Positions 6,715 through 38,280 of a stretch of DNA of 64,000 nt are shown one piece after another. Both the position numbers and the translations under genes were made by a program. The stretch is from Thermoplasmata archaeon. GTDB lineage: Archaea; Thermoplasmatota; Thermoplasmata; Lutacidiplasmatales; UBA184. Each line of letters starts with the position of its first letter. Position 1 is the first letter of the stretch. A model generated the notes under the pieces. That model was not told the origin of the DNA. It did not search any database and saw only the letters and a list, made by a program, of their open reading frames with translations. Where the stretch lies: NCBI GenBank assembly GCA_022750115.1, contig JAKIWI010000003.1, positions 175,948-239,947 of the forward strand. The letters are read 5' to 3'.

Positions 6715-7428
6715 ATGGGCGCCACCGACCAGCCGGGTCCTCGCCCGGTCGTACTGTCGGTCGGCGGCTCGGTGATCTTGAGCGCGGACAGCGCCTCCGA
6801 TGCCCCCTACCTCACTGAACTGGCCGACGTGCTCCGGGAGTTCGGGCGGACCACCCCGCTCGCGGTCACGACTGGCGGTGGCCGGATCGCCCGGGAGTAC
6901 ATCCGGCTCGGACGCTTGCTCGGCCTCACGGAAGTAGAGCTCGATGAGGTCGGGATCGCGGTGACGCGAATCCATGCGCGATTGCTCGCCGCGCGCATCG
7001 GCCCGCCGACTCCGCTCACCCCCGCCGTGACGACCGAACAGGCGGCCCATGAGCTCCACCGCGCCTCGCCGGTCGTCCTCGGCGGCACCGAACCCGGGCA
7101 CACCACCGACGGCGTCGCCGCGATGTTGGCGGTTCGACTAAGAGCGGCCCGGCTCGTTAACGCGACCAGCGTCGCCGGCCTTTACGACCACGACCCACGG
7201 ACCCATCCGGACGCGCAGCGGCGGGAGCGTCTCGGCTGGGAGGAGTTCCGGGCGATCGTCCACGAGTCGGCCGGAGAGCACGCCGGCCAGGAGTTCGTCT
7301 TCGACCGGTTCGGGGCCGACCAGCTCCGCCGCGCCGGCATCCCGCTCGCGATCGTGGACGGGCGCGATCTGCCGAACCTTCGGAAGGCGCTCGCGGGGAA
7401 GCCGTTCCTCGGCACTTCCGTCGAGTAA
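6715..7428 (+). CDS. pyrH: UMP kinase (archaeal type)
   Basis: VLSVGGSVI...TTGGGRIAREYI amino-acid-kinase fold motifs; ~237 aa; alternative GTG start at 6700. Confidence 0.8.
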   Translation: MGATDQPGPRPVVLSVGGSVILSADSASDAPYLTELADVLREFGRTTPLAVTTGGGRIAREYIRLGRLLGLTEVELDEVGIAVTRIHARLLAARIGPPTPLTPAVTTEQAAHELHRASPVVLGGTEPGHTTDGVAAMLAVRLRAARLVNATSVAGLYDHDPRTHPDAQRRERLGWEEFRAIVHESAGEHAGQEFVFDRFGADQLRRAGIPLAIVDGRDLPNLRKALAGKPFLGTSVE

Positions 7429-7485
7429 GGCGGCCGGCCGTCTCCTCCGCACAAGGGTTTTCCCTTCCCGTCGGTCGGCGCGCGC

Positions 7486-8124
7486 ATGGTCCGCATCGTC
7501 CTCCTCGGCCCGCCGGGCGCTGGGAAGGGGACGCAGGCGAAGCAGCTCGCGAAGCGGCTCGGGATCCCCCACCTCTCCACGGGGGACCTTCTCCGCGAAG
7601 CCGTCCGGGCCAAGACCCCTCTCGGGCTCGAAGCGGACGACTACATGCGGGCGGGCAGGCTCGTCCCTGACGACCTCGTCCTCCGCATCCTGCGCGAACG
7701 TCTCGCGCGCCCGGACGTCGGGCCCGGGTTCATCCTCGACGGGTATCCCCGAAACGTCGCGCAGGCGAACGAACTCGCTCGCATCTCCCCCGTCGACCGG
7801 GTCATCTCCTTCGACATCCCCGAGGGGGTGCTCGTCGAGCGGCTCACGATGCGTCGCTCGTGCCCGGCCTGCGGCACGGTGTACAATCTCTCGACGCGGC
7901 CCCCGCAAACCGCGGGGGTCTGCGATAACGACCAGACCGCCCTCCTCCAGCGCTCGGACGATACGGCCGAGGCGGTCCGCACCCGGCTCGGAGTCTACCG
8001 GGCGGAGACCGCACCGTTGCTCGAGCATTTCCGGCGGCTCGGGCTCTTGGCTCCGATCGACGCGACCGGGACCCCCGAGCAGGTCGCGGAACGCCTTCGT
8101 TGGGCCCTCGAATCGCGGTCCTAA
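7486..8124 (+). CDS. adk: adenylate kinase (long bacterial-like form with Cys4 LID zinc knuckle)
   Basis: P-loop GPPGAGKGTQ; LID domain CPACGTVYN...CDNDQ; 212 aa. Confidence 0.9.
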   Translation: MVRIVLLGPPGAGKGTQAKQLAKRLGIPHLSTGDLLREAVRAKTPLGLEADDYMRAGRLVPDDLVLRILRERLARPDVGPGFILDGYPRNVAQANELARISPVDRVISFDIPEGVLVERLTMRRSCPACGTVYNLSTRPPQTAGVCDNDQTALLQRSDDTAEAVRTRLGVYRAETAPLLEHFRRLGLLAPIDATGTPEQVAERLRWALESRS

Positions 8125-8174
8125 CGAGGCCCGCGCGCGAAGCCTTATAGTCCGAGCCTCCGTCGACCCGGCAT

Positions 8175-8280
8175 CCCGGCTTAGCTCAGTGGTAGAGCGG
8201 GGGACTGTAGTCAGGACCGTCGAAGTTCGGCGGCCCCCGTAGATATCCTCAGGTCGCCTGTTCGAGTCAGGCAGCCGGGA
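8175..8280 (+). tRNA. tRNA-Tyr(GTA) with ~34-nt intron after position 37
   Basis: Acceptor CCCGGCT/AGCCGGG, D-arm GCTC-AGTGGTA-GAGC, anticodon stem GGGGA/TCCTC with loop CTGTAG|intron|A, T-arm GCCTG-TTCGAGT-CAGGC; intron position canonical for archaeal BHB splicing. Confidence 0.7.
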
Positions 8281-8312
8281 CCTGAGGTTCCGCGGCCGGT
8301 CGGGCGCCGGCC

Positions 8313-8720
8313 CTACTTAGCGGCCTTCTTCAGCGGGGAGGTAAGTTCGACGATGTTCCCGTCCGGGTCGAACACCTGGGAATTCCGAAGACCCATCCGG
8401 GGCCGGTCGGTCGGGGGCGAAGCGATGGCGACTCCCTTGGCCTTGACGCGCTGGTACTCTTGGTCGGCATCCTTCATCTGGACCGCCAAGCCGAGGCCCT
8501 CGCGTTTCCACGCCCGCGGGGTCGGTCCTGCGAGCCCGCCGACCGTCCTCCCGAAGGCGTGGTCGAGGATCACGAGGACGCTCTTTCCGCCCGTGAACTC
8601 GGCGTAGGGGTTCTCCCCGTCACCCTTCATGCCGAGCGTGTCGCGGTAGAACGAAAGCGACGCCTCGAAGTCGCGCACGTTCAGCATCGGACCGAAGAAC
8701 TTCGGAGCAGCGGCCTTCAT
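8313..8720 (-). CDS. VOC/glyoxalase-family protein
   Basis: MLNVRDFEASLSFYRDTLGM start, 135 aa, glyoxalase-like βαβββ pattern. Confidence 0.55.
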   Translation of the reverse strand: MKAAAPKFFGPMLNVRDFEASLSFYRDTLGMKGDGENPYAEFTGGKSVLVILDHAFGRTVGGLAGPTPRAWKREGLGLAVQMKDADQEYQRVKAKGVAIASPPTDRPRMGLRNSQVFDPDGNIVELTSPLKKAAK

Positions 8721-8765
8721 CGGACCGACGAGCCGACCGGGCTATTTCTACCGGCCGTTCCGTAC

Positions 8766-9200
8766 ATGAGTCAACAACACTTGGGAACACCCTCGACGAT
8801 GGCCGCCTGGCGTCAGCGTCGGCGCGACACGGCGATGCGCGCCGCCCGACGCGCGGAGGGGATCGACTGGCTCGCGGCAGGACTGACGAACGCCGAGGTG
8901 GCCGCCCGGTTGGGAGTGAGTCGCGCGGCCGTGTCTCACTGGGTGCGACGCGCGAACCTTGGGGGGCCGGAGGGCGTTCGGCCCATTCCTCGGAGGGGGC
9001 GCCCTCCGAAGGTCGCCCGCGCGATCTCGTCCACGCTTCCTCGGTTGCTCGCCCGGGGTCCGCGTCGATTCGGGTTCTCCAGCGATAACTGGAGCCGGAT
9101 CTGGATCCCGGAAGCGGCTTCGGCGGCTTGGGGGGTCCGATACTCCCGCGGGACGAGGCACCGTCTCCTCCTGGCCCAAGGATTCCGATGGCGTCGCACC
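8766..9200 (+). pseudogene. IS630/Tc1-mariner-family transposase N-terminal (HTH) remnant, DDE domain missing
   Basis: Translation LTNAEVAARLGVSRAAVSHWVRRANLGGPEGVRPIPRRGRPPKV...FGFSSDNWSRIWI...AWGVRYSRGTRHRLLLAQGFRWRR matches the paired-HTH N-terminus of IS630 transposases; frame then degenerates into Arg/Gly-rich nonsense running antisense into the next gene; no DDE motifs. Confidence 0.55.
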
Positions 9201-9336
9201 GGCGGGGGATCCGCCCCGGTCGTGCAAGGGGCGGGCGACCGTGGATCCGGATGGTCGCCGGGTCCCCGCGTGTTGCGGCTGCTGCGGCCCCACCGTCGGA
9301 TCGCCCGAGGCGGGCGGCGCCGTTCCGGGACGACCG

Positions 9337-10023
9337 TCACCAAGGAACGCGGAGCGCCCCGGCGAGGAACCGGTTCACCGGATCGGTCCGGAGGGCGGCG
9401 TCGAGGAACTTCTTCCGGAAGCCCGGCGCCGTCACCTCCGCGTCGGAGAACTTCAGGGACGTGACGAAGTCCTTGCGGCGAAGGTCGTCCGCGAACTCGT
9501 GGTTGGCATCGTAGCCAGCGGGGACGCGGACGTACGCCTCCTCCGACGTGAGCGGGGCTTGGAGGATTGCCCGTGACCAGTCCTTCGGCTTCGCGACGAT
9601 GCGGTCCCGGATCTGCCCGAGCCCCGCGGCGGACGGCTGCCAGACGCCGGCCGAGACCATGCTCTCCCCCGGCTCGAGGTGAAGGTAGACGCCCGGGAGG
9701 TGCTCCTCCGAACTCACGGACTCCGCGTGGGCAAAGTGGATGCCCACATTGGTCCGGTAGGGGGACTTGTCCCGAGAGAAGCGAACATCGCGGTAAATCC
9801 GGGAGACGGAGCCGCCGTACGGTCGGGCGTCGGCGACGATGTGCGGGCTCATCTTGGCCATGCCGGGTTCGACCTCCTTCACGAACCGTACCGCCGGCTC
9901 GAGCACCGTCGACTCGTAGCGCGGCTTGTTCGACTGGAACCACGCGCGATTGTTGTGGCGTTCGAGATCGCGGAAGAATCGGAACAGGTCCGGCGAGAAC
10001 GAGGGGGCCGAGGTCGCGGTCAT
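9337..10023 (-). CDS. DUF2461 (TIGR02453) family conserved hypothetical protein
   Basis: FFRDLERHNNRAWFQSNKPRYE...IYRDVRFSRDKSPYRT pattern typical of DUF2461; 228 aa. Confidence 0.6.
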   Translation of the reverse strand: MTATSAPSFSPDLFRFFRDLERHNNRAWFQSNKPRYESTVLEPAVRFVKEVEPGMAKMSPHIVADARPYGGSVSRIYRDVRFSRDKSPYRTNVGIHFAHAESVSSEEHLPGVYLHLEPGESMVSAGVWQPSAAGLGQIRDRIVAKPKDWSRAILQAPLTSEEAYVRVPAGYDANHEFADDLRRKDFVTSLKFSDAEVTAPGFRKKFLDAALRTDPVNRFLAGALRVPW

Positions 10024-10090
10024 GGTCGTTGCCCGCCAGACCGGGGGTCCTTTTCTGCCTGCCGAGGGGGCGCGAGGCGATAGGCCCGGA

Positions 10091-10162
10091 TGCGGTTGTC
10101 GGGATTTGAACCCGAGTAGGTAGCTTGGGAAGCTACCGTCCTAACCACTAGACCACAACCGC
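10091..10162 (-). tRNA. tRNA-Gly(CCC)
   Basis: Reverse complement GCGGTTGTGGTCTAGTGGTTAGGACGGTAGCTTCCCAAGCTACCTACTCGGGTTCAAATCCCGACAACCGCA folds as canonical cloverleaf, anticodon loop TTCCCAA. Confidence 0.8.
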
Positions 10163-10210
10163 GCAGCGGCGGGGGAGCGGCCGCGGCTCTTGAGATTTGT
10201 CGAGCGGAGA

Positions 10211-10699
10211 TTACAGGAGGAGGCCGACCGACTCGGAGGGGATGGCGGGCGAGCGCGCCACGAGATCGGCGTTCGTGATCAGCCGCTCCGCCTTCTCGCT
10301 CACGAACCCCGCTTCCTCGAGCACCCGCCGGGCCCGTCGGACATCGTCCGTGGCGATGGCGGCGAGGATCCGAGACCCCTCTCGGGCGACCAGGATGGCG
10401 ATGCTCTCCACGTTGACGCGAGAGGCGGCGAGGATCTCGAGCACCTTCAGGAAGCTCCCGGCCCGGTCCTCGAGGTGGACGACGATCGTCTCGTGGAGGT
10501 CCACGGTGAATCCGGCGTCCTCGAGGATCCGGAGCGCCCGGTCGGGGCGGTCGGTGATCAATCGGACGTTCGAGCGGGACCCGCTCGAGTCGAGCGAGAT
10601 GGAGGCGATGTTGACCTTCTGCTCCGCGAGGAGCCGCGCGATCCGGGCGATCTGCCCCGGGCGGTTCGGCATCCGGAGCGCGATCTCTTTCAGTGCCAT
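10211..10699 (-). CDS. tandem ACT-domain protein
   Basis: Two repeats of ACT-like βαββαβ (MALKEIALRMPNRPGQIARIARLLAEQKVNI... and TIVVHLEDRAGSFLKVLEILAASRVNV...); start at internal ATG 10699. Confidence 0.55.
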   Translation of the reverse strand: MALKEIALRMPNRPGQIARIARLLAEQKVNIASISLDSSGSRSNVRLITDRPDRALRILEDAGFTVDLHETIVVHLEDRAGSFLKVLEILAASRVNVESIAILVAREGSRILAAIATDDVRRARRVLEEAGFVSEKAERLITNADLVARSPAIPSESVGLLL

Positions 10700-10808
10700 G
10701 GCGGGCCGTTCCGGCTCGTCCGAGCGCGCCGGACCCAATACCCTTGCGTCTGTACCGGAGGAACGGGGCGCAGAATCGCCGTCGTCGCCGCGCGCTCCTC
10801 CGAGCCTA

Positions 10809-10814
10809 TTTATA
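10809..10814 (+). promoter_or_regulatory. candidate archaeal TATA box (TTTATA) upstream of pilin-like gene
   Basis: Only AT-rich hexamer in GC-rich spacer, ~57 bp upstream of ATG 10871. Confidence 0.3.
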
Positions 10815-10870
10815 CCGGGAGCCGGCTAAATTCCGCATGCTTGGGGCGTTCCGTCCTAGGCCGGTCCGCC

Positions 10871-11803
10871 ATGGGGGTTCCATATGCTTCACTTCGTCGC
10901 CGGCGGTACCGCCGAAGGCTGCGGGGTAACCAGCGCGGCGTGGTCGCGGTCATCGGGACCCTCCTCGCGCTACTGGTATTCTTCGCGCTGTTCGGCGTGT
11001 TCCTCACCCAGTACCTTCCGCTGTGGATGAACGAGAACGAGGTCGCCTTCACGAACTCCGCGGAGGCGTCGTTCGCCGAGCTGAAGTCGAACATCGACCT
11101 CCAGACGGCGCTCGGCTCGCCCCCCGTGTTCCAGACGCCGTTCACGATGAACTCCCAGGGCGTCCCGCTCATCGCCCAGCCGACGATCGGCGTGCTGTCG
11201 TTCATCCCGTTCACCCCGGGCGTGTTCGCCAACGTCTCGATGAACCCGGGCCCGGGCAACAGCCACCTGTTCTGGCAGAACGTAACCCTCGGCACCGTCT
11301 CGATGTACCTGCCGAACCGGTACTTCACGCCCCAGATGTTCTCCTACGAGGACGACGCGGTCGTCCAGGAGCAGACGGACACCACCCAGATCCTCGCCTT
11401 CCCGCCGACGCTGACCGTCAACCAGACGGGCAACCAGATCGCCGTGACGATGTCGCTCGTCCAGCTCCTCGGGAACGCCTCCCAGGTGATCACGACCGGC
11501 ACCCAGCAGGTGTCGAGCCACTTCGTCTTCACCCAGACCTACGCGAGCAACGGCACGGGCCTCCCCGGCTCGCTGAACGCTTCGTTCGCGATCGGCACGC
11601 ACTACCCGTGCGCCTGGGCGTCGTACCTCAGCCAGACGCTCTCGCAGTCGAACATCGCCGCGAGCCACTTCGCGCTGACCCCCAGCACGTGCATCGCCTC
11701 CGGCGGGAACGTGGTTCCCGTTTCCCTCACGTTGACCGCCATCAGTTCGTTCACCCTCGTCTTCGCCGAGCTGAACATCGTCGCTGGCGTCGGGGTCGAA
11801 TGA
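10871..11803 (+). CDS. large type-IV-pilin-like protein with class III (prepilin) signal peptide, N-glycosylation-sequon rich
   Basis: N-terminus MGVPYASLRRRRYRRRLRGNQRG|VVAVIGTLLALLVFFALFGVFL: basic stretch, RG then hydrophobic helix = archaeal class III signal; >12 NxS/T sequons (NVS, NVT, NQT, NAS, NGT); first gene of pilus locus. Long GC-extended ORF (10190) rejected upstream of this ATG. Confidence 0.6.
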   Translation: MGVPYASLRRRRYRRRLRGNQRGVVAVIGTLLALLVFFALFGVFLTQYLPLWMNENEVAFTNSAEASFAELKSNIDLQTALGSPPVFQTPFTMNSQGVPLIAQPTIGVLSFIPFTPGVFANVSMNPGPGNSHLFWQNVTLGTVSMYLPNRYFTPQMFSYEDDAVVQEQTDTTQILAFPPTLTVNQTGNQIAVTMSLVQLLGNASQVITTGTQQVSSHFVFTQTYASNGTGLPGSLNASFAIGTHYPCAWASYLSQTLSQSNIAASHFALTPSTCIASGGNVVPVSLTLTAISSFTLVFAELNIVAGVGVE

Positions 11804-11813
11804 GGGACGATCG

Positions 11814-13472
11814 GTGAGCGCTGCGTCCTACCGGGTGAAAGTCCCGCGGGCGGCGCCCCGGGCCGCCGAGAACCCGCTCGCCGCCCCGCGGACCCAGGCC
11901 GAGGAGAGCCCGTCGTCCGAGCTTCCGGGGACGTTCATCACCGCGATGCCGGCGCTCGCGGACCGCGACATGCGCGAGCTCGAGGTGACGGCGGTCAACC
12001 CGCCGTACAGCTACGCGCGGATCAGCTACCACGAGCAGAAGAAGGAGTATCTGTACGAGGTCATCGAGCCCCAGCTCTCCCAGCACGAGCGCGAGCTCGT
12101 CACCCACCTGAAGGGGACGCTCACGCGGATCCTCGGCTCGGAGGTCGCCGACCTCTCGATCACCGACAAGCGCACCTACCTCCGGGGCGAGGTCGAGGGC
12201 TACCTCAAGAGCCGCCAGATCAGCCTCTCGCCGATCTCGACCGAGCGGGTCGTCTACTACATCGTCCGCGACTTCGTCGGCTACGGCCCGATCGACGCGC
12301 TGATCCTCGACATCCAGGTCGAGGACATCAGCTGCGACGGCGTCGGCGTGCCGCTGTTCATTTTCCACGGAAAATACGAGAGCGTGAAGACGAACGTCGT
12401 CTTCGACGACGAGGACCAGCTCAACTCGTTCATCGTCGCGCTCGGCCAGCGCTGCGGGAAGGCCGTCTCCGTCTCGAACCCGATTCTCGACGGCACGACG
12501 CCCGAGGGCCACCGGGTCCAGGCGACGTACGCCCGCGAGATCACCACGCGCGGCGCGAGCTTCACAATCCGGCGGTTCAAGGAGCGACCGTTCACGCCCG
12601 TCGACCTGGTCCTGACGGGGAGCGCGTCGGAGGAGATGATCGCCTACTTCTGGCTCGCCGCCGAGCAGGGCGAATCGCTGATCATCTGCGGCGGCCCCGC
12701 CGCCGGGAAGACGAGCACGCTCAACGCGATCGCGCTGTTCATCCCGCCGACGTCGAAGATCGTCTCGATCGAGGACACCCGCGAGGTGAACCTCCCGCAC
12801 GAGAACTGGATCCCCGGCGCGACGCGGAGCGGCACCGGCGACCGCGGCGCCGACGGGAAAGCCGCCGGAGAGGTCGACATGTTCGACCTCGTGCGCGCCG
12901 CGTTGCGGCAGCGCCCGAACTACATCATCGTCGGCGAGGTCCGCGGCCGCGAGACCTATACAATGTTCCAGGCGATGGCCACGGGCCACACGACCTACTC
13001 GACGATGCACGCGGACAGCGTGAAGTCGATGGTCAACCGCCTCGAGAACCCGCCGATCAACACGCCACGGATTCTCCTCTCGGCGCTCAATAACGTCATC
13101 ATCCAGGTCCAGGCGCGCACCGACAAGGGCGTGGTCCGCCGGTTGAAGCAGGTGCTCGAGATCGTCGGCTTCGAGCCCGAAACGAACGAGCTGATCACCA
13201 ACACGGTCTACGAGTGGGACCCCGGCACGGACAAGTTCGTGTTCAAGGGCCACTCGTTCCTGTTTGACAAGATCATGGAACTTCGGAACTTCACCCACGA
13301 CGAGATGGAGGCCGAGTTCCAGCGCCGCGTCGCCGTCGTGAACTACCTCGCGAAGAACAAGGTCAACGACTACCGCCAGCTCTGGAAGCTCGTCTCGGCC
13401 TACTACAAGGACCCGAAGGACGTCATGGCGCGCGTCGAGTCGAACGCGGTCATCGTGCCGGGGGCGGCGTAG
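11814..13472 (+). CDS. type IV filament assembly ATPase, FlaI/TadA/VirB11 superfamily (paralog 1)
   Basis: Walker A GGPAAGKTST, Walker B/Asp box, His box, ASFTIRRF and ENWIPGATRSG conserved blocks of archaeal FlaI/ArlI-like ATPases; 552 aa. Confidence 0.85.
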   Translation: MSAASYRVKVPRAAPRAAENPLAAPRTQAEESPSSELPGTFITAMPALADRDMRELEVTAVNPPYSYARISYHEQKKEYLYEVIEPQLSQHERELVTHLKGTLTRILGSEVADLSITDKRTYLRGEVEGYLKSRQISLSPISTERVVYYIVRDFVGYGPIDALILDIQVEDISCDGVGVPLFIFHGKYESVKTNVVFDDEDQLNSFIVALGQRCGKAVSVSNPILDGTTPEGHRVQATYAREITTRGASFTIRRFKERPFTPVDLVLTGSASEEMIAYFWLAAEQGESLIICGGPAAGKTSTLNAIALFIPPTSKIVSIEDTREVNLPHENWIPGATRSGTGDRGADGKAAGEVDMFDLVRAALRQRPNYIIVGEVRGRETYTMFQAMATGHTTYSTMHADSVKSMVNRLENPPINTPRILLSALNNVIIQVQARTDKGVVRRLKQVLEIVGFEPETNELITNTVYEWDPGTDKFVFKGHSFLFDKIMELRNFTHDEMEAEFQRRVAVVNYLAKNKVNDYRQLWKLVSAYYKDPKDVMARVESNAVIVPGAA

Positions 13473-14435
13473 ATGGCGATCGACCCGCGCCCGGTCGAGG
13501 TCGCCGCGGTCGAGGGGACCCGGACGATTCGCCTCAAGAAGGGCGAACAGCCGACCCATTCCCCCCTCACCCCGTTCGAGTCCTGGGCGTGGAAGACCTT
13601 CCGCGAGCGGGTGACGAACCGCCCACCCGACCCGCTCCTCGATGAGCAGCTCCTCAAGGCCCACATGCGGATCCGCGGCGACGAGTACCTCGCGAAGGTC
13701 TACGCGACGACCGTCGTCGCGGTGATCGCCCTCGCCGCCGTCGGCATCGTCCTCGCCGTCCTCCTCAGCACCGCGGGCCTCGCGTTCCTCGGCATCGGGC
13801 TCGCCATCGTGCTCCCCGTCCTCGGGGGAATCGGCTCGTTCTTCGCCCTCAAGGGTGCCCCGGGCGGCAAAGCGAAGTCGCGCGGCAAGGCGATCGACCG
13901 AAAGATCTCCTCGTCGATGAGCTTCGTCAGCGCGATGGCGTCGGCCGACGTCAACATCGACGCCATCTTCAAGGAGCTCGCGCGCCAGAAGATCTACGGG
14001 GAGGTCGCCGAAGAGGCGGCCTGGATCACCCGCGACACCGAGCTCCTCGGGCTCGACATCCTGACCGCGATCCGCAACGGCGCGACCCGCACGCCGTCGA
14101 AGCGGTTCCAGGACTTCCTGCAGGGCGTCGTCACGACCGCCACGAGCGGCGGCCAGCTGAAGCCCTACTTCCTCGCGAAGGCCGAGCAGTACGAGCGCGA
14201 GAACAAGCTCGAGCTCCTCCAGCGCGTCGAGACGATGGGTCTCCTCGCCGAGACGTTCGTGACCGTCGTCGTGGCGTTCCCCCTGTTCCTCGTGATCATC
14301 ATCGCCATCTTCGCGATCATCGGCGGCGGCGGGGCGTTCATGATCACCGTGCTCTACGGGATCATCCTCGGCATGATCCCGATGTCGCAGATCGGGTTCA
14401 TCTTTTTCATGTATTCGCTGGCGCAGGAGGCCTAG
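13473..14435 (+). CDS. half-size pilus platform membrane protein (TadB/TadC/FlaJ-like, T2SS-F domain), copy 1
   Basis: 320 aa, TM helices flanking a cytoplasmic T2SSF-like domain (SMSFVSAMASADVNIDAIFKELARQKIYGEVAEEAAWITRDTELLGLDILTAIRNGAT); start ATG abuts stop of ATPase 1. Confidence 0.7.
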   Translation: MAIDPRPVEVAAVEGTRTIRLKKGEQPTHSPLTPFESWAWKTFRERVTNRPPDPLLDEQLLKAHMRIRGDEYLAKVYATTVVAVIALAAVGIVLAVLLSTAGLAFLGIGLAIVLPVLGGIGSFFALKGAPGGKAKSRGKAIDRKISSSMSFVSAMASADVNIDAIFKELARQKIYGEVAEEAAWITRDTELLGLDILTAIRNGATRTPSKRFQDFLQGVVTTATSGGQLKPYFLAKAEQYERENKLELLQRVETMGLLAETFVTVVVAFPLFLVIIIAIFAIIGGGGAFMITVLYGIILGMIPMSQIGFIFFMYSLAQEA

Positions 14436-15394
14436 TGGCGACGGCGACGGTCCTCAAGCCCGCTCAGTTCGCGGACAAGCTGGGCGACGTCAGCGAAGAG
14501 GCGACGATCCCCAAGGAGACTCTCGTCCTCATCGTCGGGCTGATCGCCGGCATCGCCCTGATGGTCGTCGGCGCGATGGACTACCTCGGCGCGCTGAACG
14601 TCCAGGTCCGCCCCGGGGAAGGGGCTGGCACGAACCCCGCCCTCGACTTCCTCGTCCTCGGCATCTCCGCGATCTTCGGGCCGTACGGCTTCGTCATGAC
14701 GGCGAAGCTCCGGAGGATCCAGAAGATCGAGGAGCGCCTCCCCGACTTCCTCCGCGACGTCTCCGAGGCCGGGCGCTTCGGGATGACGCTCCCGGACGCC
14801 ATCATCGTCGCCTCGCGCGGACGCTACGGCCTCCTCACCGAGGAGATCAAGAAGATGGCGAGCCAGCTCGAGTGGGGCGTCCCGGTGGCCACGGCGCTCC
14901 GTCTCTTCGAGGAGCGCGTGCCCACGCCGCTCGTCAAGCGCGTCGTCTCGATCATCACCCGCGCGAACGAGGCGGGCGGGAACGTCGCCGACGTCCTGAC
15001 GATGGTCGCGCACGACACGCGGGAAGTGCAGCTCTCCTACCAGGCGCGCCAGATCTCGATGCTGACCTACGTGACGGTCATTTACATCTCGTTCTACGTC
15101 TTCCTCGTCACGATCTACATCATGGCGGCGGTGTTCCTGCCGCAAATGGTCGTCGCGGGCCAGGGGATTTCCTCGAGCAGCCTCGCCGGCGCCGGGGCCG
15201 TCAACCTCCAGTTCAGCTTCGTCCCGGTGCTGTTCATTGCCTTCATGCTCGCCGTCATCGTCCACGCCGTCGGCGACGGGATCATGGCGGGGGTGCTGTT
15301 CTCCGGACGCCTCAGCGAGGGGCTCCAGCACGCGACGATCATGCTGCTGTCGGGATGGGCGATCATGCGCTTCGTCGTCCCGCCGCTCTCCTAG
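14435..15394 (+). CDS. half-size pilus platform membrane protein (TadB/TadC/FlaJ-like, T2SS-F domain), copy 2
   Basis: 319 aa, GTG start overlapping preceding stop; T2SSF-like block LPDFLRDVSEAGRFGMTLPDAIIVASRGRYGLLTEEIKKMASQLEWGVPVATAL; TM helices at both ends. Confidence 0.7.
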   Translation: MATATVLKPAQFADKLGDVSEEATIPKETLVLIVGLIAGIALMVVGAMDYLGALNVQVRPGEGAGTNPALDFLVLGISAIFGPYGFVMTAKLRRIQKIEERLPDFLRDVSEAGRFGMTLPDAIIVASRGRYGLLTEEIKKMASQLEWGVPVATALRLFEERVPTPLVKRVVSIITRANEAGGNVADVLTMVAHDTREVQLSYQARQISMLTYVTVIYISFYVFLVTIYIMAAVFLPQMVVAGQGISSSSLAGAGAVNLQFSFVPVLFIAFMLAVIVHAVGDGIMAGVLFSGRLSEGLQHATIMLLSGWAIMRFVVPPLS

Positions 15395-15402
15395 AGGTTC
15401 CG

Positions 15403-17160
15403 ATGGCCAGCGAATCCGTGCAGCGAACGACCTCCGACGTACCGGGCCGCAAGGCCGCGCCGCGGCGGAAATCGACCGGGACGTTCTCCCCGTGGCTCAA
15501 GATCGGCGCCGCGCTTCGCAAGGGGACGAGCGAGCCGCGTCCGGTCAAGCTCGCGCGCCTCGGCGTCTCGGGCCAGGGGGCCGAGGGGCTCGTCACGCCG
15601 ATCCCCCCGCTCGACGACCCGGCGCTCCAGCTCCTCGAGCTCGACCCGATCCGGGAAGGGTTCTCCTACGTCCGCATCACGTTCCACAACCAGCGGAACG
15701 AGCACCTCTACGAGGTGATCGAGCCGCCGCTGTCCGAGATCGAGAAAGAGCTCCTCGAACGCCTCAAGGTCCTCCTCGTCGACCAGTTCGAGCCGCTCCC
15801 CGAGCTCGACATCGATACGAAGCGCCGCGAGCTCCGCCGGATGGTCGACGACCAGTTCCACGAGTGGGAGATCTCCCCGAGCCCGACGACGAAGGGACGG
15901 ATCATCTACTACCTCGAGCGCGAGTTCACCGGCTACGGCGTCGTCGACGCGCCGATGACCGACAGCGAGGTCGAGGACATCAGCTGCGACGGGGTCGGCA
16001 TCCCGCTCTACATCTACCACCGCAAGTACGGCTCGATCCGCTCGAACCTGAAGTTCGAGGATGCGCTCCGCCTCGACAGCTACGTCGTCTGGCTCGCGCA
16101 GCGTTCGGGCAAGCACATCTCCGTCGCGAACCCGATGCTCGACGCGACCGTCCCGGACGGCTCGCGTCTCCAGGCGACGCTCGGGATGCACGTCACGAAG
16201 CGCGGGAGCTCGTTCACGATCCGGCGCTTCCGCGACAACCCGTTCACGCCGGTCGACCTGCTGAAGTTCCGGACGATGAGCCCGGACATGATGGCCTACC
16301 TGTGGATCGCCATCGAAGCGGGCCAATCGATGATGGTCTGCGGGGGAACGGCGTCCGGCAAGACGACGACGCTCAACGCGACGCTCCTGTTCATCCCGCC
16401 CCAGATGAAGATCGTCTCGATCGAGGACACGCGGGAGCTCAACCTCCCCCACGAGAACTGGGTCCCGTCGCTCACGCGCGCCGGGTTCGGCGCGAAGAAC
16501 CTCGTCAGCGGGAAGGCCCCGGGCGAGATCGACATGTTCGACCTCCTCGCCGCGGCCCTCCGTCAGCGCCCGCAGTACCTGATGGTGGGGGAGGTGCGAG
16601 GTGCCGAGGCGTTCATCGTCTTCCAGGCGATGGCGACCGGCAAGACCTGCTACACGACGTTCCACGCCGAGAGCGTGAGCGCGATGGTCCACCGGATGGA
16701 GAACCCTCCGATCTCGCTCCCCCGCTCGCTCGTCTCGGCGCTGAACCTGGTGCTCCTCCAGCGCCAGGTGAAGGTCGGGAACAAGATGACCCGCCGCGTC
16801 CAGAGCCTCACCGAGATCGTCGGCCTCGACCCGGAGACGAACGAGCTGATCACCAACTCGGTCTACTCGTGGAACCCGGGCGACGACACGTTCCTCTTCT
16901 CGGGCCACTCCTACGTCTACGAGCGCGTCGCGATCGTGAAGAACCTCACGATGAAGGAGATGGAACGGGAGGTCCGCCAGCGCGTCGAGATCCTCGAGTA
17001 CCTGAAGTGGCTCGAGGCGCGCAGCACGCGCCAGAACCCGTTCACGCACCGCGAAGTAGGCCGGCTCGTCTCCTTCTACTACAAGGAGCCTCAGCAGGCG
17101 CTCGCCGAGGCCCGCGCCGCCGCCGCCTCCGGAAAACCGCCATCGAAGCCGGGCGCGTAG
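15403..17160 (+). CDS. type IV filament assembly ATPase, FlaI/TadA/VirB11 superfamily (paralog 2)
   Basis: Walker A GGTASGKTTT; same conserved blocks as paralog 1 (SSFTIRRF, ENWVPSLTRAG, MVGEVRGAEAF); start at ATG 15403 not the GC-extended ORF 14872. Confidence 0.85.
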   Translation: MASESVQRTTSDVPGRKAAPRRKSTGTFSPWLKIGAALRKGTSEPRPVKLARLGVSGQGAEGLVTPIPPLDDPALQLLELDPIREGFSYVRITFHNQRNEHLYEVIEPPLSEIEKELLERLKVLLVDQFEPLPELDIDTKRRELRRMVDDQFHEWEISPSPTTKGRIIYYLEREFTGYGVVDAPMTDSEVEDISCDGVGIPLYIYHRKYGSIRSNLKFEDALRLDSYVVWLAQRSGKHISVANPMLDATVPDGSRLQATLGMHVTKRGSSFTIRRFRDNPFTPVDLLKFRTMSPDMMAYLWIAIEAGQSMMVCGGTASGKTTTLNATLLFIPPQMKIVSIEDTRELNLPHENWVPSLTRAGFGAKNLVSGKAPGEIDMFDLLAAALRQRPQYLMVGEVRGAEAFIVFQAMATGKTCYTTFHAESVSAMVHRMENPPISLPRSLVSALNLVLLQRQVKVGNKMTRRVQSLTEIVGLDPETNELITNSVYSWNPGDDTFLFSGHSYVYERVAIVKNLTMKEMEREVRQRVEILEYLKWLEARSTRQNPFTHREVGRLVSFYYKEPQQALAEARAAAASGKPPSKPGA

Positions 17161-17203: not shown

Positions 17204-18280
17204 ATGCCGGGCCCGGTCCCGTTCGCGCGCCTCGTCGGCCCGAACGGCGCCCCCGTCGTCCTGTACGAGGCCGACTCGGTCCGGACGCTCCCGAAGCTCC
17301 TCGCGAAGGGATCGGTCGACTGCGTCGTCACCTCACCTCCGTACAACCGCAAGGTCGCCTACGGGAGCTACGACGACGACCGGCCGCGGGCCGAGTACCT
17401 CCGGTGGATCGGCACAGCCGCCGACTCGGTGCGGCGGGTCCTATCGCCCGCCGGGTCGTTCTTCCTCAACGTCGGCGGCTCTCCCACCGACCCGTGGCTC
17501 CCCTGGGATGTCGCCCGCGAGGTCGGCCGGCGCTTCGCGCTCCAGAACGTCGTGCACTGGGTGAAATCAATCGCCATCGACCGGGAGCTCGCGGGGAAGG
17601 ACGCCGGGCTCACGCGCGATCTTGCGGTCGGGCACTACAAGCCGCTCAACTCGAAGCGCTACCTGCACTCGGGCCACGAGTACGTCTTTCACTTCACCCA
17701 CCGCGGCGACGTCGAGCTCGACCGGCTCGCCGTCGGCGTCGCCTATCAGGACCCCTCGAACGTGGACCGGTGGCGCTCGAGCGGGTCGAACCGTCGCTGC
17801 CGGGGCAACACATGGTTCCTCCCGTACCGGACGATCCGCTTCCGCTCGAAGGACCGCCCGCATCCGGCGGCGTTCCCCGTCGAGTTGCCCGAGCGTTGCT
17901 TCCGATTGCACGGCGTCGGGCGCCTGCGCCTCGCCGTCGACCCGTTCGTCGGGATCGGCTCCTCCGCCGTCGCCGCGGTGCGGCTCGGGATCCCGTTCGT
18001 CGGCTTCGACGTCGACCCCGAGTACCTCGCCACAGCGGAGACCGCTCTGCGGGCGGCCGGCGCCATTGTCCCGCCGCCGACCCCTTCGACCGTCGGCGAA
18101 CGCCGCCGAAACCCGAGCCTTAAGTACGCCGGACCCGAGTTTCCCCTTGGAGCGACGTCGTCCGGATGGCAAGCCCCGCGCGAACCCGGCCGGGCCCGGA
18201 CTCCACCGGCCGCCAGCCGTCGTCCCCGGCCGAACGGGAAGCGCTCGACTACCTTGGCCGCGAGATCCGGCCAGTTCTGA
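17204..18280 (+). CDS. DNA methyltransferase, beta-class amino-MTase (N4-cytosine or N6-adenine), apparently orphan
   Basis: Motif IV SPPY (VVTSPPYN) precedes motif I FxGxG (DPFVGIGSS) = circularly permuted beta architecture; catalytic fold ends ~18080, remainder of ORF is low-complexity read-through. Confidence 0.75.
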   Translation: MPGPVPFARLVGPNGAPVVLYEADSVRTLPKLLAKGSVDCVVTSPPYNRKVAYGSYDDDRPRAEYLRWIGTAADSVRRVLSPAGSFFLNVGGSPTDPWLPWDVAREVGRRFALQNVVHWVKSIAIDRELAGKDAGLTRDLAVGHYKPLNSKRYLHSGHEYVFHFTHRGDVELDRLAVGVAYQDPSNVDRWRSSGSNRRCRGNTWFLPYRTIRFRSKDRPHPAAFPVELPERCFRLHGVGRLRLAVDPFVGIGSSAVAAVRLGIPFVGFDVDPEYLATAETALRAAGAIVPPPTPSTVGERRRNPSLKYAGPEFPLGATSSGWQAPREPGRARTPPAASRRPRPNGKRSTTLAARSGQF

Positions 18281-21354: not shown

Positions 21355-22638
21355 CTACGACCGTTCGAGCGTCGCCGTGAGGCAGTGGGCCCCGCCATAC
21401 GCTCCCGTGAGGTTCTCGAGGGGAACCTGCGTCGAGTCGACCGCGAGGTCCCGGAACTCGGGCTTGTTCGGGAAAAAGCTCCCTTCGGCCCTGAGCTGAG
21501 AGAACTCCCGGGCCGCTCGCAGGTAGAGGCGGCCGTAGCGCGCCGGCTGGCGCTCCGCCGCCCTCCGGAGGTTCGCAAGGACCCGCTCGGCGTTCCGCCC
21601 CACGTCGGGCACGACGATGGTGCGGTCCTTCGTGGTCAGGAAGTTCGTGGCGTAGCACAGCTGTTCGAGGGTGGAGATGCCGACGACCCGGAAGCCGTGC
21701 GTCTCCTCCAGGTACGGGAGGAGCCGGGTCTCCCGGGACCTATGGTAGGCGCCCCCCTCGCGGAGGTAGATCTCGACCCGCGCGGCCTCGAGCATCTCGC
21801 GGTGCCCGACGGCGATCCCCTCGCCCGGGAAGTTGAGGTAGGTGTCGAGATGCATGTTCACCATCGGGTCCGGCGTCGGGAGGAGCGGGTGCCGCGGCTG
21901 GTGGACGACGCCGACCTCGGGGAAGCCGAGGCCGTGCTCGAGCACCTCGCGAACTCCGGTGGCGTTCGTGCGGTCGCCCGTTCCGAGGAGCGCGAACTCC
22001 CCCGCCGGTAGGAAGTCGCCCCCCTCGAACGTCCCCTTCACGACCTGGGCGACCGGCCGCTCGCCGGCGGCCCGCCACACGAAGGAGGTGATCTCGGTCT
22101 CCCCGCGCCGCTGGGGCTTGGCGAGCCGCCCGATCACGATCCCGCGGTCGGTGACCGCCTGCTGGTCCCGGAGGAAGAACAGGTTGGTGAGCGGCTTTCG
22201 CAACGTCGGGAAGGAGGAGACGGACCGGGTCCCGCGACCCCGCTCGAACCGGATCGTCGGGGAGAGGACGAGGATCTGGACGAGCTGCTCGCGGTCGAGC
22301 AGGCGGACGTTCTCGCGGAACTCCCGCCGCGCGCGGTCGGAGCCGGGGCCGTTGAACCGGACGGTCGCGAGCACCCGGTCGACGAGCTCGCGCGCCACCT
22401 CCGCGCGGCGTCCCGCCGCCTCGAGCAGCAGCTCGTCCGGGTTCAGGACGTGTACGCCGAAGCCGGTCCGGAGCGTGTGGACGAGCTCCTCGTGTTCCCG
22501 GCGGGCCTTTTGCAGGCTGAACACGCGCTCGTAGAGGCTCGTGTACGGCTCGAGAAGCCCGAAGAACGCCTCGAGACCGGGGGGACGCGCTGCCACCCGT
22601 CGGAGCGGGTGCCACTCGGCGAGCGCCCGGGCGGTCAC
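21355..22638 (-). CDS. amidinotransferase-superfamily enzyme, arginine-deiminase-like
   Basis: 427 aa; C-terminal catalytic GGAHCLT cysteine motif typical of arginine deiminase/ amidinotransferase fold; internal His/Asp/Glu spacing consistent. Confidence 0.6.
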   Translation of the reverse strand: MTARALAEWHPLRRVAARPPGLEAFFGLLEPYTSLYERVFSLQKARREHEELVHTLRTGFGVHVLNPDELLLEAAGRRAEVARELVDRVLATVRFNGPGSDRARREFRENVRLLDREQLVQILVLSPTIRFERGRGTRSVSSFPTLRKPLTNLFFLRDQQAVTDRGIVIGRLAKPQRRGETEITSFVWRAAGERPVAQVVKGTFEGGDFLPAGEFALLGTGDRTNATGVREVLEHGLGFPEVGVVHQPRHPLLPTPDPMVNMHLDTYLNFPGEGIAVGHREMLEAARVEIYLREGGAYHRSRETRLLPYLEETHGFRVVGISTLEQLCYATNFLTTKDRTIVVPDVGRNAERVLANLRRAAERQPARYGRLYLRAAREFSQLRAEGSFFPNKPEFRDLAVDSTQVPLENLTGAYGGAHCLTATLERS

Positions 22639-26342: not shown

Positions 26343-27917
26343 CTACCCGCCCATTCGTCGGTCGGACTTCCGTCGGCGGCCCTTCGCCGTGGCGGCTCCG
26401 GGCGCGGGCGATGCCGCCACCGGCCGCGGCGCGGGGAGCGGGTTCACCGGCTGACGGATCGTCTCCGAGGTTCCGATCCACCGGACGAGGAGCTCGACGC
26501 CGAGACGATTCGGGTCGGTCACGACCATCGTGCCTTCGAGCGTCCGGGTGATCTCCCTCGCCGCGGCCTCGTACTCCGGATGCTCGGACCGGATCAGGAT
26601 CAGGGAGAACTTCAGGGGACGAACGGTCGCGAGCTCGCGCGCGCGGCCGAGCGCGGCCTCCATCGCCATCGGGAGGTTGCCCGAGCGGACCGAGCCGTCC
26701 GAGTCGGTGTACGCCTCCGGCAGACCGTCGGTGACCAGGTACACCTCGCGCCGGGTCGCGCGCGAGGCGCGCAGGAGGAGGAACGCCGTGCGGAGCGCCT
26801 CCGCCGTGTTCGTGAACGCCCCGGGCGTGCACTCCCACAGCTCGACGAGGTCGAGCAGGTCGACGCGGTTGTCGAACGCGACGACGTCGATCGTGGCGTC
26901 GGGGTGCCGCCGGCGGATTGCCACGTAGAGCGCGAGCAGCGCCTTCTTCGCCGCCGGGAGCTTCTCTCCCTCGGCCATGCTGCCGGAGCGGTCGAACGCG
27001 AGCACGACGTGCACGCGCTCGCTCGTCACCTCCCGATAGACGTAGCTCGTCGATTCGTCGATGTGCCGCAGCCCGGCTTGGCGAGCCGCGAGGATCGAGC
27101 TGGGGAGATCCAGGTGGGCGATCTCCTCCGGTTGACGGAGCCGCGCCTTCTCGTAGACCCCGGTCGACGCACCGCCGGCGAGCGAGAGGCGCGCGTCGGC
27201 GGGGAGCTGGCGGGTCTCCTCCTCGAGCACGAGGCGGGCGAACCGCTCGACGAGGCCGTACGTGACGGCGAGGGTGCCGTCCTTCTCGGTCACGAACCCG
27301 CGCTCCTTCATCTCGCGCTCGAGACGGCGGGACTCGGCGTCGCGGACGCGACCCCGTTCCTCCTCCTCGGCCCTCCGGCGGGCTTCCTCCCGCTCGGCGG
27401 CGAGGGCGCGGCGCTGCTCCTCGGCTTGGCGGCGCTTCTCCTCCGCCTCGCGCCGGAGGTCGCGCTCGCGGGCGCTGAGGGTCTGGTCGACCCGTTCGGT
27501 GAGCTGCTGCCGTTCGTCCGGAGTCAACCGGGCGATCGCCTCCCCGAGGTCCGAGGAACCGATCGACCGACCGCCCTCCCCCAGACGGGCGAAGACCACC
27601 GACCGCGCGCCCCGAACTTTCGGGGCGCGGGTCGGCGTTCGGCCGAACAGCGACCGGAACCAAGCGATGAGGCGAGCGAACCACGCGCGCAGTCGTGCGA
27701 CGAACGAGGGCTTCTCCGGTTGCATCCACGGAGCGTCGGGGAGCAGAAGCGCGCTGCGGACATCGTCGACGAACCCGTCGTCGATCTTCGACCAGTCGAG
27801 CCCCCGGGCGCGGCGACGCCGATCCTCGGCGTTCGCGAGCTCCGCCGCCAGCTCCGCCTCGGTCCTTCGCCGGACCGTCTCGAGCTCGCCCTCGCGCCGG
27901 TCGTACTCGCCCATCAC
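26343..27917 (-). CDS. vWA-domain protein with N-terminal charged coiled-coil region
   Basis: C-terminal VLAFDRSGSM (DxSxS MIDAS) ... DATIDVVAFDNRVD ... TNTAEAL vWA motifs; Arg/Glu-rich helical N-terminus; chosen over overlapping frame 26230..27729. Confidence 0.7.
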   Translation of the reverse strand: MMGEYDRREGELETVRRRTEAELAAELANAEDRRRRARGLDWSKIDDGFVDDVRSALLLPDAPWMQPEKPSFVARLRAWFARLIAWFRSLFGRTPTRAPKVRGARSVVFARLGEGGRSIGSSDLGEAIARLTPDERQQLTERVDQTLSARERDLRREAEEKRRQAEEQRRALAAEREEARRRAEEEERGRVRDAESRRLEREMKERGFVTEKDGTLAVTYGLVERFARLVLEEETRQLPADARLSLAGGASTGVYEKARLRQPEEIAHLDLPSSILAARQAGLRHIDESTSYVYREVTSERVHVVLAFDRSGSMAEGEKLPAAKKALLALYVAIRRRHPDATIDVVAFDNRVDLLDLVELWECTPGAFTNTAEALRTAFLLLRASRATRREVYLVTDGLPEAYTDSDGSVRSGNLPMAMEAALGRARELATVRPLKFSLILIRSEHPEYEAAAREITRTLEGTMVVTDPNRLGVELLVRWIGTSETIRQPVNPLPAPRPVAASPAPGAATAKGRRRKSDRRMGG

Positions 27918-28146: not shown

Positions 28147-29721
28147 TCAGAGGCGGGCGTCGTCGTCCGCGTCCTCTTCCGAGCAGGTGAACAAGGAGTA
28201 CCGCTCGAGAAGCTCGAAGGTCCGGAGGGCGGCGTCGACCGGCCGCAGCCCGGGCGGACGACGGCCCCGCTCGCCGACGTAGGAGGTGAACGCCCGGAAC
28301 TTCGGGAACTCGTTCCCCGGCACGGCGACGGTGTCGACCAGGGCCGGGTCGTTCTTCAGTCGCCGACCCTCGGAGACGACGGCCTCGCCGTCGGACTTGT
28401 TCTGCTTCAGGACGTTGCCGTAGAACCGGCACCAGTAGACGCCGCTCGAGCGCTTCAGCGCCGGCTCCAGATGCTGCTCGACGAACTCGCGCACGCGCCG
28501 CTCGTTCTGGTCGAACGAGTCGCCGCTGCGGGCGCGGATGCGGCCCCGCATGGCGTGGAGAAGTCCCGCCTGGACGTCCTCGACGCCCGCGACCGGGTGG
28601 TCGTGGAGGCTCGCGATGGCGGCGGTACGCGCCGCAATGTCGATGAGCGTCCGGTTCGACCCGACCTCCCCGATGTCGGGGTTGTCGTCGGACGCCTTCT
28701 GGCGCCACGTCTCGATGACGCGCACACCGGCGTCGACGAGGATCTCGGGGACGAAGCTCGTCCCGTCGATCGCGGCGGCCAGCTGCACGATGCGGCGGTT
28801 GGCGGCGTGCGAGGCGTTGTAGGTGACGTGGAGGCTCGTCAGGCGGTCGGAGAGCGGGTCGTTGATGTTGTCGAGGTCCGAGAGGTTCGATGTACCGACG
28901 GCGACGAACATCCCGGGGAAGCTCTCCCGGGACTTGGACGGGGTGACCGTCCCCTCCTGCAGCGCCTGGAGGAGCACGTTCTGCGTTCCGAGCGGGAGCT
29001 TGCCGATCTCGTCGACGAGGAGGAGGCCGCGGTTCGCCTGCAGGAGCTTCCCCGGCTCGAGCACGAGCGGGCTCATCGGGTCGCCGATCTCCTCGAGCCG
29101 TCGGAGGTTGATGTTGCCCGTCAGGTGGTCCGGGAACACTTCGCTGCTCCCCTGCAATCGGGCGAAGCCGTAGCCCTCGCGGAGGCGGACCTGCTCCGCG
29201 GGCACCTTCGTCGGGTCGATGGAGGCCGGGTCGAACGCCGAGACGTCGTTGCCCGGCGCGAACCGGCGGCGGCAGATCGGGCACGGGGGGAACCGCTCCG
29301 CCGCCTTCGGGTCGACGATCGAGAGGGGATGGTCGAGGACGGGGCAGTTCGGGACGACCCAGGCGTCCTTCGGGAACAGTTCCCAGACCTCCTTCGCGAG
29401 GTTCGTCTTGCCGGCGCCGGACGGGCCGAAGAAGAGGACGTGGGACCCAGCGACCAGCGCGGTCGTCAGGTCTTCGTAGGTGTTGGACGGGAGGACCGTC
29501 CGCGGGAACAGCGCCGCGGTCGCTTCCTCGCGGCTCATGCCGCCGCGCCGGCCGGCGTCGAGGCGCCGGAAGATCTCGGTGCGCAGGCGCTCGTTCGGGG
29601 TCTCGACCGCGACGCCCCGCTCCTTCAGCTGCTGGGCCGTCGCCTTCGTCCCGGCCGGGACGGACGACCTCGGGGCGGCACCGCTCGCCGTCGACACGCG
29701 CGGCCGAGCGAGGCACGCCAT
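28147..29721 (-). CDS. AAA+ ATPase (MoxR/ChlI-like clade) with Cys4 zinc-ribbon insertion
   Basis: Walker A GPSGAGKT, Walker B LLLVDEIGKL, sensor-1 VAVGTSN, insert CPVL...CPIC between A and B; chosen over overlapping frame 27914..29716. Confidence 0.75.
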   Translation of the reverse strand: MACLARPRVSTASGAAPRSSVPAGTKATAQQLKERGVAVETPNERLRTEIFRRLDAGRRGGMSREEATAALFPRTVLPSNTYEDLTTALVAGSHVLFFGPSGAGKTNLAKEVWELFPKDAWVVPNCPVLDHPLSIVDPKAAERFPPCPICRRRFAPGNDVSAFDPASIDPTKVPAEQVRLREGYGFARLQGSSEVFPDHLTGNINLRRLEEIGDPMSPLVLEPGKLLQANRGLLLVDEIGKLPLGTQNVLLQALQEGTVTPSKSRESFPGMFVAVGTSNLSDLDNINDPLSDRLTSLHVTYNASHAANRRIVQLAAAIDGTSFVPEILVDAGVRVIETWRQKASDDNPDIGEVGSNRTLIDIAARTAAIASLHDHPVAGVEDVQAGLLHAMRGRIRARSGDSFDQNERRVREFVEQHLEPALKRSSGVYWCRFYGNVLKQNKSDGEAVVSEGRRLKNDPALVDTVAVPGNEFPKFRAFTSYVGERGRRPPGLRPVDAALRTFELLERYSLFTCSEEDADDDARL

Positions 29722-38106: not shown

Positions 38107-38280
38107 GAGCGGCCTCGGGAGAGGCCCGAGTCGCAACCGGACCGAGGTATCGCGAGCCGTATCGCGGCTAAGGTTGAAGAGCGGCAGCCCTGTGCGCCGG
38201 CACGGTGGCCTGGCCCACCCCTACGGGGGGTGGTCCGGTACGCCATACGGACCGGGGACTCGGGGGCGCGCGCAGTGTCG

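Follow-up and report, generated by a model that had tools for sequence, protein, structure and literature searches.

Organisation of the locus

The 64-kb window analysed here, the whole stretch of 64,000 nucleotides taken from contig JAKIWI010000003.1 of a Thermoplasmata archaeon (GenBank GCA_022750115.1), contains a type IV filament locus in which two paralogous ATPases, designated E1 (upstream) and E2 (downstream), bracket two platform genes, Fa and Fb, with a pilin-like gene at the head of the string (Table 1). Judged by gene order and sequence relationships, the locus can be assigned to the CdiP type, that is, it is predicted to encode the same type IV pilus machinery as that of Cuniculiplasma divulgatum. 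The string of five genes was delineated by open reading frame (ORF) listing and codon-position G+C content; all are read in one direction, and the spacing between consecutive genes is 10, 0, −1 and 8 nucleotides. The G+C content of the window is about 69%, and the hexamer TTTATA upstream of the pilin-like gene is the sole match to TTTAWA on both strands of the 64-kb sequence, with none inside the gene string on either strand. This element may function as a promoter. Since the genes abut or overlap and the region has a single TATA-like box, the five genes likely form one operon transcribed from one promoter.

Table 1. Features of the type IV filament locus and its surroundings (positions in the 64-kb window)
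Feature	Position	Strand	Description
TATA-box-like hexamer TTTATA	10809-10814	+	putative operon promoter; 56 nucleotides 5' of the pilin-like ATG
Pilin-like gene	10871-11803	+	310 amino acids, class III signal
ATPase E1 gene	11814-13472	+	upstream paralogue, CdiPE1 orthologue group; 552 amino acids, GTG start
Fa platform gene	13473-14435	+	T2SSF gene 1, CdiPFa homologue; 320 amino acids
Fb platform gene	14435-15394	+	T2SSF gene 2, CdiPFb homologue; 319 amino acids
ATPase E2 gene	15403-17160	+	downstream paralogue, CdiPE2 orthologue group; 585 amino acids
DNA methylase gene	17204-18280	+	Pfam N6_N4_Mtase; starts 43 nucleotides after E2
Arginine deiminase gene	21355-22638		between the methylase region and the vWA/AAA pair
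vWA-domain protein and AAA ATPase genes	26343-27917 and 28147-29721	-	adjacent; AAA ATPase is PrkA/MoxR-like
Three large genes in a row	34072-43492	+	1344 amino acids (Kelch and PKD), 1044 amino acids, and 721 amino acids (family-2 glycosyltransferase)

Both ATPases matched the Pfam family T2SSE far above its cutoff of 24.9 bits (E1, 109.1 bits, 2.5e-31; E2, 116.8 bits, 1.2e-33), and PilB3_C was matched by E1 as well. The two proteins share 51% identity across 503 residues, and this alignment includes the conserved blocks ASFTIRRF/SSFTIRRF and ENWIPGATRSG/ENWVPSLTRAG. Among the structures in the PDB, the best match of each was the Archaeoglobus fulgidus GspE (afGspE, 2oap; 7e-125 for E1 and 2.8e-123 for E2), followed by FlaI (1.6e-83 and 3.5e-87, respectively) and CpaF (2e-44 and about 1e-38). 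Walker A is intact in both ATPases, with the sequence GGPAAGKTS in E1 and GGTASGKTT in E2, as are the Asp box (SIEDTRE), Walker B (VGEVRG) and the His box. The catalytic residues are invariant in 67 E1 orthologues and 74 E2 orthologues, with 100% conservation in both groups of the Walker A residues G, G, K and T, the Asp-box E/T/R/E, the Walker B G-E-R, the His-box T and H, and the conserved arginines. Both ATPases are active-looking and predicted to be catalytically competent; the possibility that one of them is degenerate was rejected in view of these invariant motifs. An insertion of 8–9 residues preceding GEIDMFDL is common to E1 and E2 and absent from afGspE and FlaI.

Several assignments of the ATPases to characterised families were considered and rejected. 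Scores against the FlaI model NF058587 (406.7 bits for E1 and 402.2 bits for E2) were below the equivalog cutoff of 550, those against the TadA/CpaF model TIGR03819 (139 and 141 bits) were below the cutoff of 373, and those against the PilT/PilU model TIGR01420 (45.5 and 38.2 bits) were far below the cutoff of 319.1, both proteins being full-length. An archaellum was rejected since the ATPases fall under the FlaI equivalog cutoff and lack accessory genes: none of the families ArlH, C, D, F and G and no archaellin genes were found among the window ORFs.

A sequence 100% identical to E2 is present in a public metagenome-assembled genome (MAG) labelled 'Thermoplasmata archaeon', and proteins from JGI metagenomes and one Candidatus Lutacidiplasmatales MAG are 89–90% identical; all 120 homologues among the matches listed, out of at least 8000 scored, are at least 80% identical to E2. 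The N-terminal extension of E2 (window positions 15403–15620) carries a motif typical of the group of closely related loci, F(S/P)PWL(K/R)(I/L)GAA(L/M)RKG…VKLARLGVSGQG, in place of which the E2 proteins of the Thermoplasmatales type have a short N-terminus rich in lysine and arginine.

Fa and Fb each contain one Pfam T2SSF domain, and they cover opposite parts of the archaellum platform protein. Fa aligned to positions 5–244 of 555 in an NCBIfam ArlJ model, i.e., to the N-terminal half of FlaJ/TadC, while Fb aligned to the C-terminal halves of ArlJ models, 193–445 of 465 in the best-scoring one and 315–536 of 555 in the model matched by Fa. The similarity between Fa and Fb is weak, with 28% identity over 121 residues. 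Because they match opposite ArlJ halves and show this low mutual identity, Fa and Fb are predicted to be two halves of one split platform rather than duplicates or two platforms. Comparison with the C. divulgatum proteins, whose sequences were taken from the supplement of PMC12448462 and may include optical character recognition errors, gave 34% identity over 286 aligned residues between Fa and CdiPFa (E-value of 6e-44) and 32% identity over the full length between Fb and CdiPFb, with the motif RLPDFLRD in both Fb-type proteins.

The N-terminus of the pilin-like protein, RRRLRGNQRG-VVAVIGTLLALLVFF, agrees with a class III signal: a short charged leader with Gly at position −1 precedes about 20 hydrophobic residues (…RGNQRG-VVAVIGTLLALLVFFALFGVF), as in type IV pilins. 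In the AlphaFold2 model (predicted local distance difference test score, pLDDT, of 85.7), a 60-residue N-terminal helix (residues 22–81) is followed by a beta-rich head. No curated pilin family in Pfam or NCBIfam was matched by this protein, and its fold matches were weak. Its length of 310 amino acids makes it more likely to be a minor or accessory pilin than the principal subunit of the filament. A scan of the 64-kb window revealed no further proteins with a class III signal, including a small major pilin similar to CdiPB, and no prepilin peptidase was found among the Pfam-annotated ORFs flanking the operon; we infer that the genes for the main filament pilin and for the prepilin peptidase lie outside the window.

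An initial annotation of this DNA had described a type IV filament locus consisting of a pilin with a class III signal, two intact ATPase paralogues sharing the blocks quoted above, and two platform genes between them, all in a single co-oriented and tightly packed string. The present results agree with this description in each respect, including the integrity of Walker A and B in both ATPases. The span of 10739–17160 given for the locus holds at its end, while its start is intergenic; the first gene begins with the ATG at 10871.

Distribution of the two-ATPase arrangement

To describe how widespread this arrangement is, genomes of species representatives (one per species) were scanned with an alignment of Fb as a query, and the loci found were annotated by BLAST against the window proteins. 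This yielded 80 loci, 74 in Thermoplasmata and 6 in other archaea. The order E1-Fa-Fb-E2 was observed in 67 of the 68 Thermoplasmata loci in which both flanks are present; this count includes one locus (L015) in which all four genes are present and the ORF caller gave a wrong order. The six further Thermoplasmata loci end at contig ends, and Fb-E2 is still visible in them. The six loci from outside Thermoplasmata, belonging to the anaerobic methanotrophic lineage ANME-2 and to Methanoregula, contain only ATPase-Fa-Fb.

The single Thermoplasmata locus with both flanks but without a second ATPase, L049 (MAG SO_2017_GW3_8, positions 7118–10735), consists of the pilin-like gene, one ATPase, Fa and Fb. 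Its ATPase favours neither the E1 nor the E2 profile (782 versus 786 bits) and is grouped with E2 on the neighbour-joining tree. Possible explanations for this locus are secondary loss, recombination, or separation of its lineage before the duplication took place.

The pilin-like gene is also conserved beside the E1-Fa-Fb-E2 module. It precedes E1 in the group of close relatives, and a homologue is located directly after E2 in Natronoplasma-like and other groups (loci L040–L047 and L050–L052). In a close relative with an E2 82% identical to that of the window, the flanking genes are shared with the window too. At a greater distance, the locus L068 carries proteins 97–98% identical to the published CdiPFa and CdiPFb in the order E1-Fa-Fb-E2, and therefore the published CdiP operon and the operon described here share one architecture. 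Altogether, the two-ATPase layout with a split platform is the norm among the sampled Thermoplasmata and not a peculiarity of Cuniculiplasma.

Parts of this picture have been published before. Two ATPases in one type IV pilus locus with a pilin gene were listed for Aciduliprofundum boonei (Makarova 2016, PMC4858521). In C. divulgatum, the ATPases CSP5_0712 and CSP5_0715 were found to flank two TadC-like genes, J2 and J1 (CSP5_0713-14), an arrangement likened to that of Aciduliprofundum, and the orthologues were placed in arCOG01817 (ATPase) and arCOG01808 (TadC) (Golyshina 2016, PMC5155288). More recently, the structure of the C. divulgatum pilus was solved and the genes were named CdiPE1, CdiPFa, CdiPFb and CdiPE2; the presence of two ATPases was called 'unique' among archaeal operons and the second ATPase 'enigmatic', and an analogy with PilB/PilT was discussed (Gaines 2025, PMC12448462). 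Two-ATPase loci are not mentioned in a 2026 preprint on archaeal type IV filament machineries. The initial annotation had regarded two ATPases in one operon as a novelty, a claim that by its own terms would fall if the arrangement proved common in a described family. The arrangement is indeed unusual among characterised archaeal systems; however, it is not undescribed (PMC4858521, PMC5155288, PMC12448462), and the search for its synteny in related genomes, which had been proposed along with that claim, recovered the ATPase-platform-platform-ATPase order so regularly that the novelty claim is refuted on those terms.

Origin of the two ATPases

A neighbour-joining tree of 150 ATPase sequences was constructed with 100 bootstrap replicates. 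The upstream ATPases of the two-ATPase loci form a clade with a bootstrap value of 70%, and in a further 26% of replicates this clade also includes the ATPase of L049. The downstream ATPases of the Thermoplasmatales type are placed at the base of the tree, a position that we read as a probable effect of long-branch attraction, since reciprocal profile scores group the E2 sequences together.

For these scores, profiles were made for the close group (A) and for the Thermoplasmatales-type group (B), and the sequences of each group were scored on the profiles of the other. The downstream ATPases of group B favoured the downstream profile of group A by 44–86 bits, and the upstream ATPases of group B favoured the upstream profile of group A by 44–77 bits. 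In the opposite direction, the preference for the profile of the same position was 75–110 bits for downstream and 11–64 bits for upstream ATPases. The single-ATPase outgroups and afGspE scored nearly equally on the two profiles of group A, with a difference of no more than 12 bits. The upstream and downstream ATPases thus constitute separate, position-specific orthologue groups corresponding to the CdiPE1 and CdiPE2 types. Together with the invariant gene order, the reciprocal profile scores indicate that a hexameric ATPase of the GspE/FlaI type was duplicated once, long ago, to give E1 and E2, an event that would predate the split of the sampled Thermoplasmata orders.

The two paralogues are 32–50% identical within one genome, and the mean pairwise identity is 0.56 among E1 and 0.57 among E2 sequences. 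Four positions discriminate the two groups in all lineages sampled, and at three of them E1 has a derived residue (A to G at 227; S to H at 233, beside a conserved Arg; L to V at 360) while E2 retains the outgroup state. The Walker A region of E1 is likewise derived, in contrast to the outgroup-like one of E2. In the Thermoplasmatales-type loci (L056–L084), E1 has departed further, with SIEETRE in the Asp box (D to E), G294V in Walker A and PPIGMFEL instead of GEIDMFDL, while the canonical motifs are kept in E2. These changes hint that the function of E1 may have diverged further in acidophiles.

Possible roles of the two ATPases

Both ATPases appear catalytically competent and are kept under comparable constraint, which argues that E1 and E2 are not redundant. 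One could hypothesise that Fa and Fb assemble into one heteromeric platform and that E1 and E2 form separate hexamers docking in turn on it. The ancestral-looking E2 would then be the general polymerisation motor, while the derived E1 would serve a specialised step, for instance the priming of assembly by minor pilins, or filament disassembly and turnover. We infer the shared platform, the separate hexamers and the role of each ATPase; separate hexamers are preferred because motor exchange, which has precedent across the superfamily of GspE/PilB/FlaI-type ATPases, is the only mode of using two such motors with a precedent there. Taken as a whole, i.e., an operon of the CdiP type, one old duplication, and non-redundant E1 and E2 exchanging as separate hexamers on one platform, this account seems to us slightly more probable than its negation.

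Several points weigh against it. A single ATPase performs both extension and retraction in Tad pili. The same is reported for the Aap pilus of Sulfolobus (PMC11178785), and since single ATPases suffice in these two systems, a second motor is unnecessary for pilus dynamics. No twitching was observed in C. divulgatum (PMC12448462), so that a role in retraction lacks support. The claim of a single operon draws on gene spacing and on one TATA-like motif. The neighbour-joining tree does not recover the downstream ATPases as monophyletic (1 of 100 bootstraps) and places them in two groups with very short internal branches between them; the claim of one duplication therefore stands on synteny and profile scores, as the tree by itself does not show a single origin. 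Finally, a mixed ring of E1 and E2 would explain the tight coupling of translation and the equal rates of evolution at least as well as separate hexamers.

An obligate assembly of both paralogues into one mixed hexamer, such as a ring in which E1 and E2 alternate and which drives the Fa/Fb platform, is the main rival explanation. It would account for the joint presence of both genes in nearly all complete loci and for the intact active sites of both proteins, whose near-equal rates are reflected in the identity values given above; the genes of the module abut or overlap by 1–4 nucleotides, which suggests coupled and nearly equimolar synthesis, and the platform is likewise predicted to be a heteromer of two differing halves. 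The subunits in the crystal of afGspE alternate between open and closed states, which also speaks for such a ring. However, a single ATPase accompanies this split platform in the outgroup loci and in L049, and we know of no mixed ring in the superfamily of GspE, PilB, PilT, FlaI and VirB11. We consider the mixed hexamer rather unlikely; if real, it would give the GspE/PilB/FlaI superfamily its first heteromeric motor.

A division of labour in the manner of PilB and PilT, with one ATPase extending and the other retracting the filament, would fit two active-looking motors serving one platform, and the derived substitutions of E1, beside the conserved Arg and in Walker A, occur in all sampled groups of Thermoplasmata; this analogy was also raised for C. 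divulgatum (PMC12448462). Yet neither paralogue resembles PilT, as judged by the TIGR01420 scores, and E1 and E2 are both of full length, have the N-terminal domain in common and are identical at about half of their residues. This lack of resemblance, along with the absence of twitching in C. divulgatum and the reported retraction of Aap pili on one ATPase, weakens the explanation, and we regard it as improbable. As a tentative proposal, less probable than not, the locus could encode either a motor in which E1 and E2 necessarily combine in one mixed hexamer on the heteromeric platform of Fa and Fb, or an archaeal pair of ATPases for extension and retraction with an origin independent of PilB/PilT. 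A heteromeric motor and an assembly/retraction-like division of labour had also been the two ideas offered by the initial annotation. Whichever of the two were true, it would date back to the ancestor of the sampled Thermoplasmata orders and not be specific to Cuniculiplasma.

If E1 and E2 were isoforms that replace one another according to conditions or to the pilin set, this would be in line with the proposal that paralogous ATPase/TadC modules share pilins under differing regulation (Makarova 2016). Nevertheless, E1 and E2 lie in one tightly packed string with one promoter-like element, which makes their differential regulation unlikely, and redundancy is at odds with the retention of both genes in 67 of 68 lineages and with their orthologue-specific signatures; this explanation is very improbable. 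Hardly any credence can be given to a head-to-tail fusion of two independent minimal systems (pilin-E1-Fa and Fb-E2), which the initial annotation had allowed for and to which the position of one platform gene next to each ATPase might point, or to one ATPase being a degenerate regulatory subunit: the fusion is contradicted by Fa and Fb being the N- and C-terminal halves of a single FlaJ/TadC-type protein and by the outgroups combining one ATPase with both halves, and the degenerate subunit by the invariance of all catalytic residues in both ATPases.

The general view is that archaeal type IV filaments are driven by one multifunctional ATPase. The locus described here adds a further example beside the published exception that was called unique and enigmatic; the arrangement was already known in kind, and the increment consists in its breadth across the Thermoplasmata sampled and in its ancient origin. 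Since the layout is the rule, appears ancient and has kept the active sites of the two ATPases intact, a real and conserved function of the second motor is probable. An oddity of one acidophile thereby becomes a question concerning a whole archaeal class, with relevance to the origin of motor specialisation in type IV filament machines.

Genomic neighbourhood

Upstream of the operon, an ACT-domain gene is located in divergent orientation. The DNA methylase gene following E2 encodes an N6/N4 methyltransferase; about 35 closely related loci carry this gene at the corresponding place, and it is absent after E2 in the Thermoplasmatales, the Natronoplasma-like and other distant groups. No restriction enzyme partner of this methyltransferase was seen in the annotated neighbourhood.

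The adjacent genes for a vWA-domain protein and an AAA ATPase are separated from the methylase region by about 8 kb of other genes, including that of arginine deiminase. In a relative (L001), the vWA and AAA ATPase pair adjoins the pilus operon, just past the methylase gene and one small ORF. Pairs of vWA and MoxR genes have been catalogued as associated with type IV pili (Makarova 2016, PMC4858521). Farther downstream, three large genes in a row may be cell-surface or adhesin genes; in addition to the domains listed in Table 1, a weak match to the InlB-B repeat was found in the 1044-amino-acid protein.

Comparison with known type IV filament systems

The CdiP machinery of C. divulgatum is the closest characterised counterpart. 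Like the operon in the window, it consists of an ATPase, an N-half platform, a C-half platform and another ATPase in a co-oriented, tightly packed string, and it is devoid of AapX and archaellum accessory genes. The sequences are distant, however, the window E1 and E2 being 39% and 43% identical, respectively, to those of the C. divulgatum-like locus L068, and the window E1 lacks the motifs of Thermoplasmatales-type E1 (SIEETRE and G294V). While the window operon is headed by the 310-amino-acid pilin-like gene, the CdiP pilin genes are located about 500 kb from the machinery operon (PMC12448462). The DNA methylase gene after E2 is another difference from CdiP. RNA sequencing of C. divulgatum revealed no growth-phase-dependent change for the machinery genes (PMC12448462). 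The locus of Aciduliprofundum boonei resembles that of the window in having two distinct ATPases and a pilin gene, and the published description drew the same likeness for Cuniculiplasma.

Among solved proteins, afGspE is the best homologue of E1 and E2 and corresponds to them over nearly the full length, including the N-terminal domain, but it has neither a paralogous partner nor the 8–9-residue insertion. The loci of ANME-2 (Methanocomedens) and Methanoregula contain a homologous split platform, 30–38% identical to that of the window. Their ATPase has its best match in the window E1 (46–48%), with about equal scores on the close-group profiles of E1 and E2. Because they have one ATPase only, unlike the window, these loci represent either the pre-duplication state or a state lacking the duplication.

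In bacterial Tad systems (CpaF/TadA, TadB and TadC), the platform is also split into two single-domain proteins, but one ATPase is present, and the match of E1 and E2 to CpaF is far weaker than to afGspE and FlaI. Bacterial PilB and PilT provide a precedent for two hexameric ATPases acting on one platform, although E1 and E2 are not PilT-like. Unlike these two bacterial systems, the window locus has no secretin and no outer-membrane part. The archaellum, with FlaI/ArlI and ArlJ, shares with the window locus the superfamilies of both the ATPase and the platform, and FlaI of Sulfolobus acidocaldarius is the second-best solved match of the two ATPases after afGspE.

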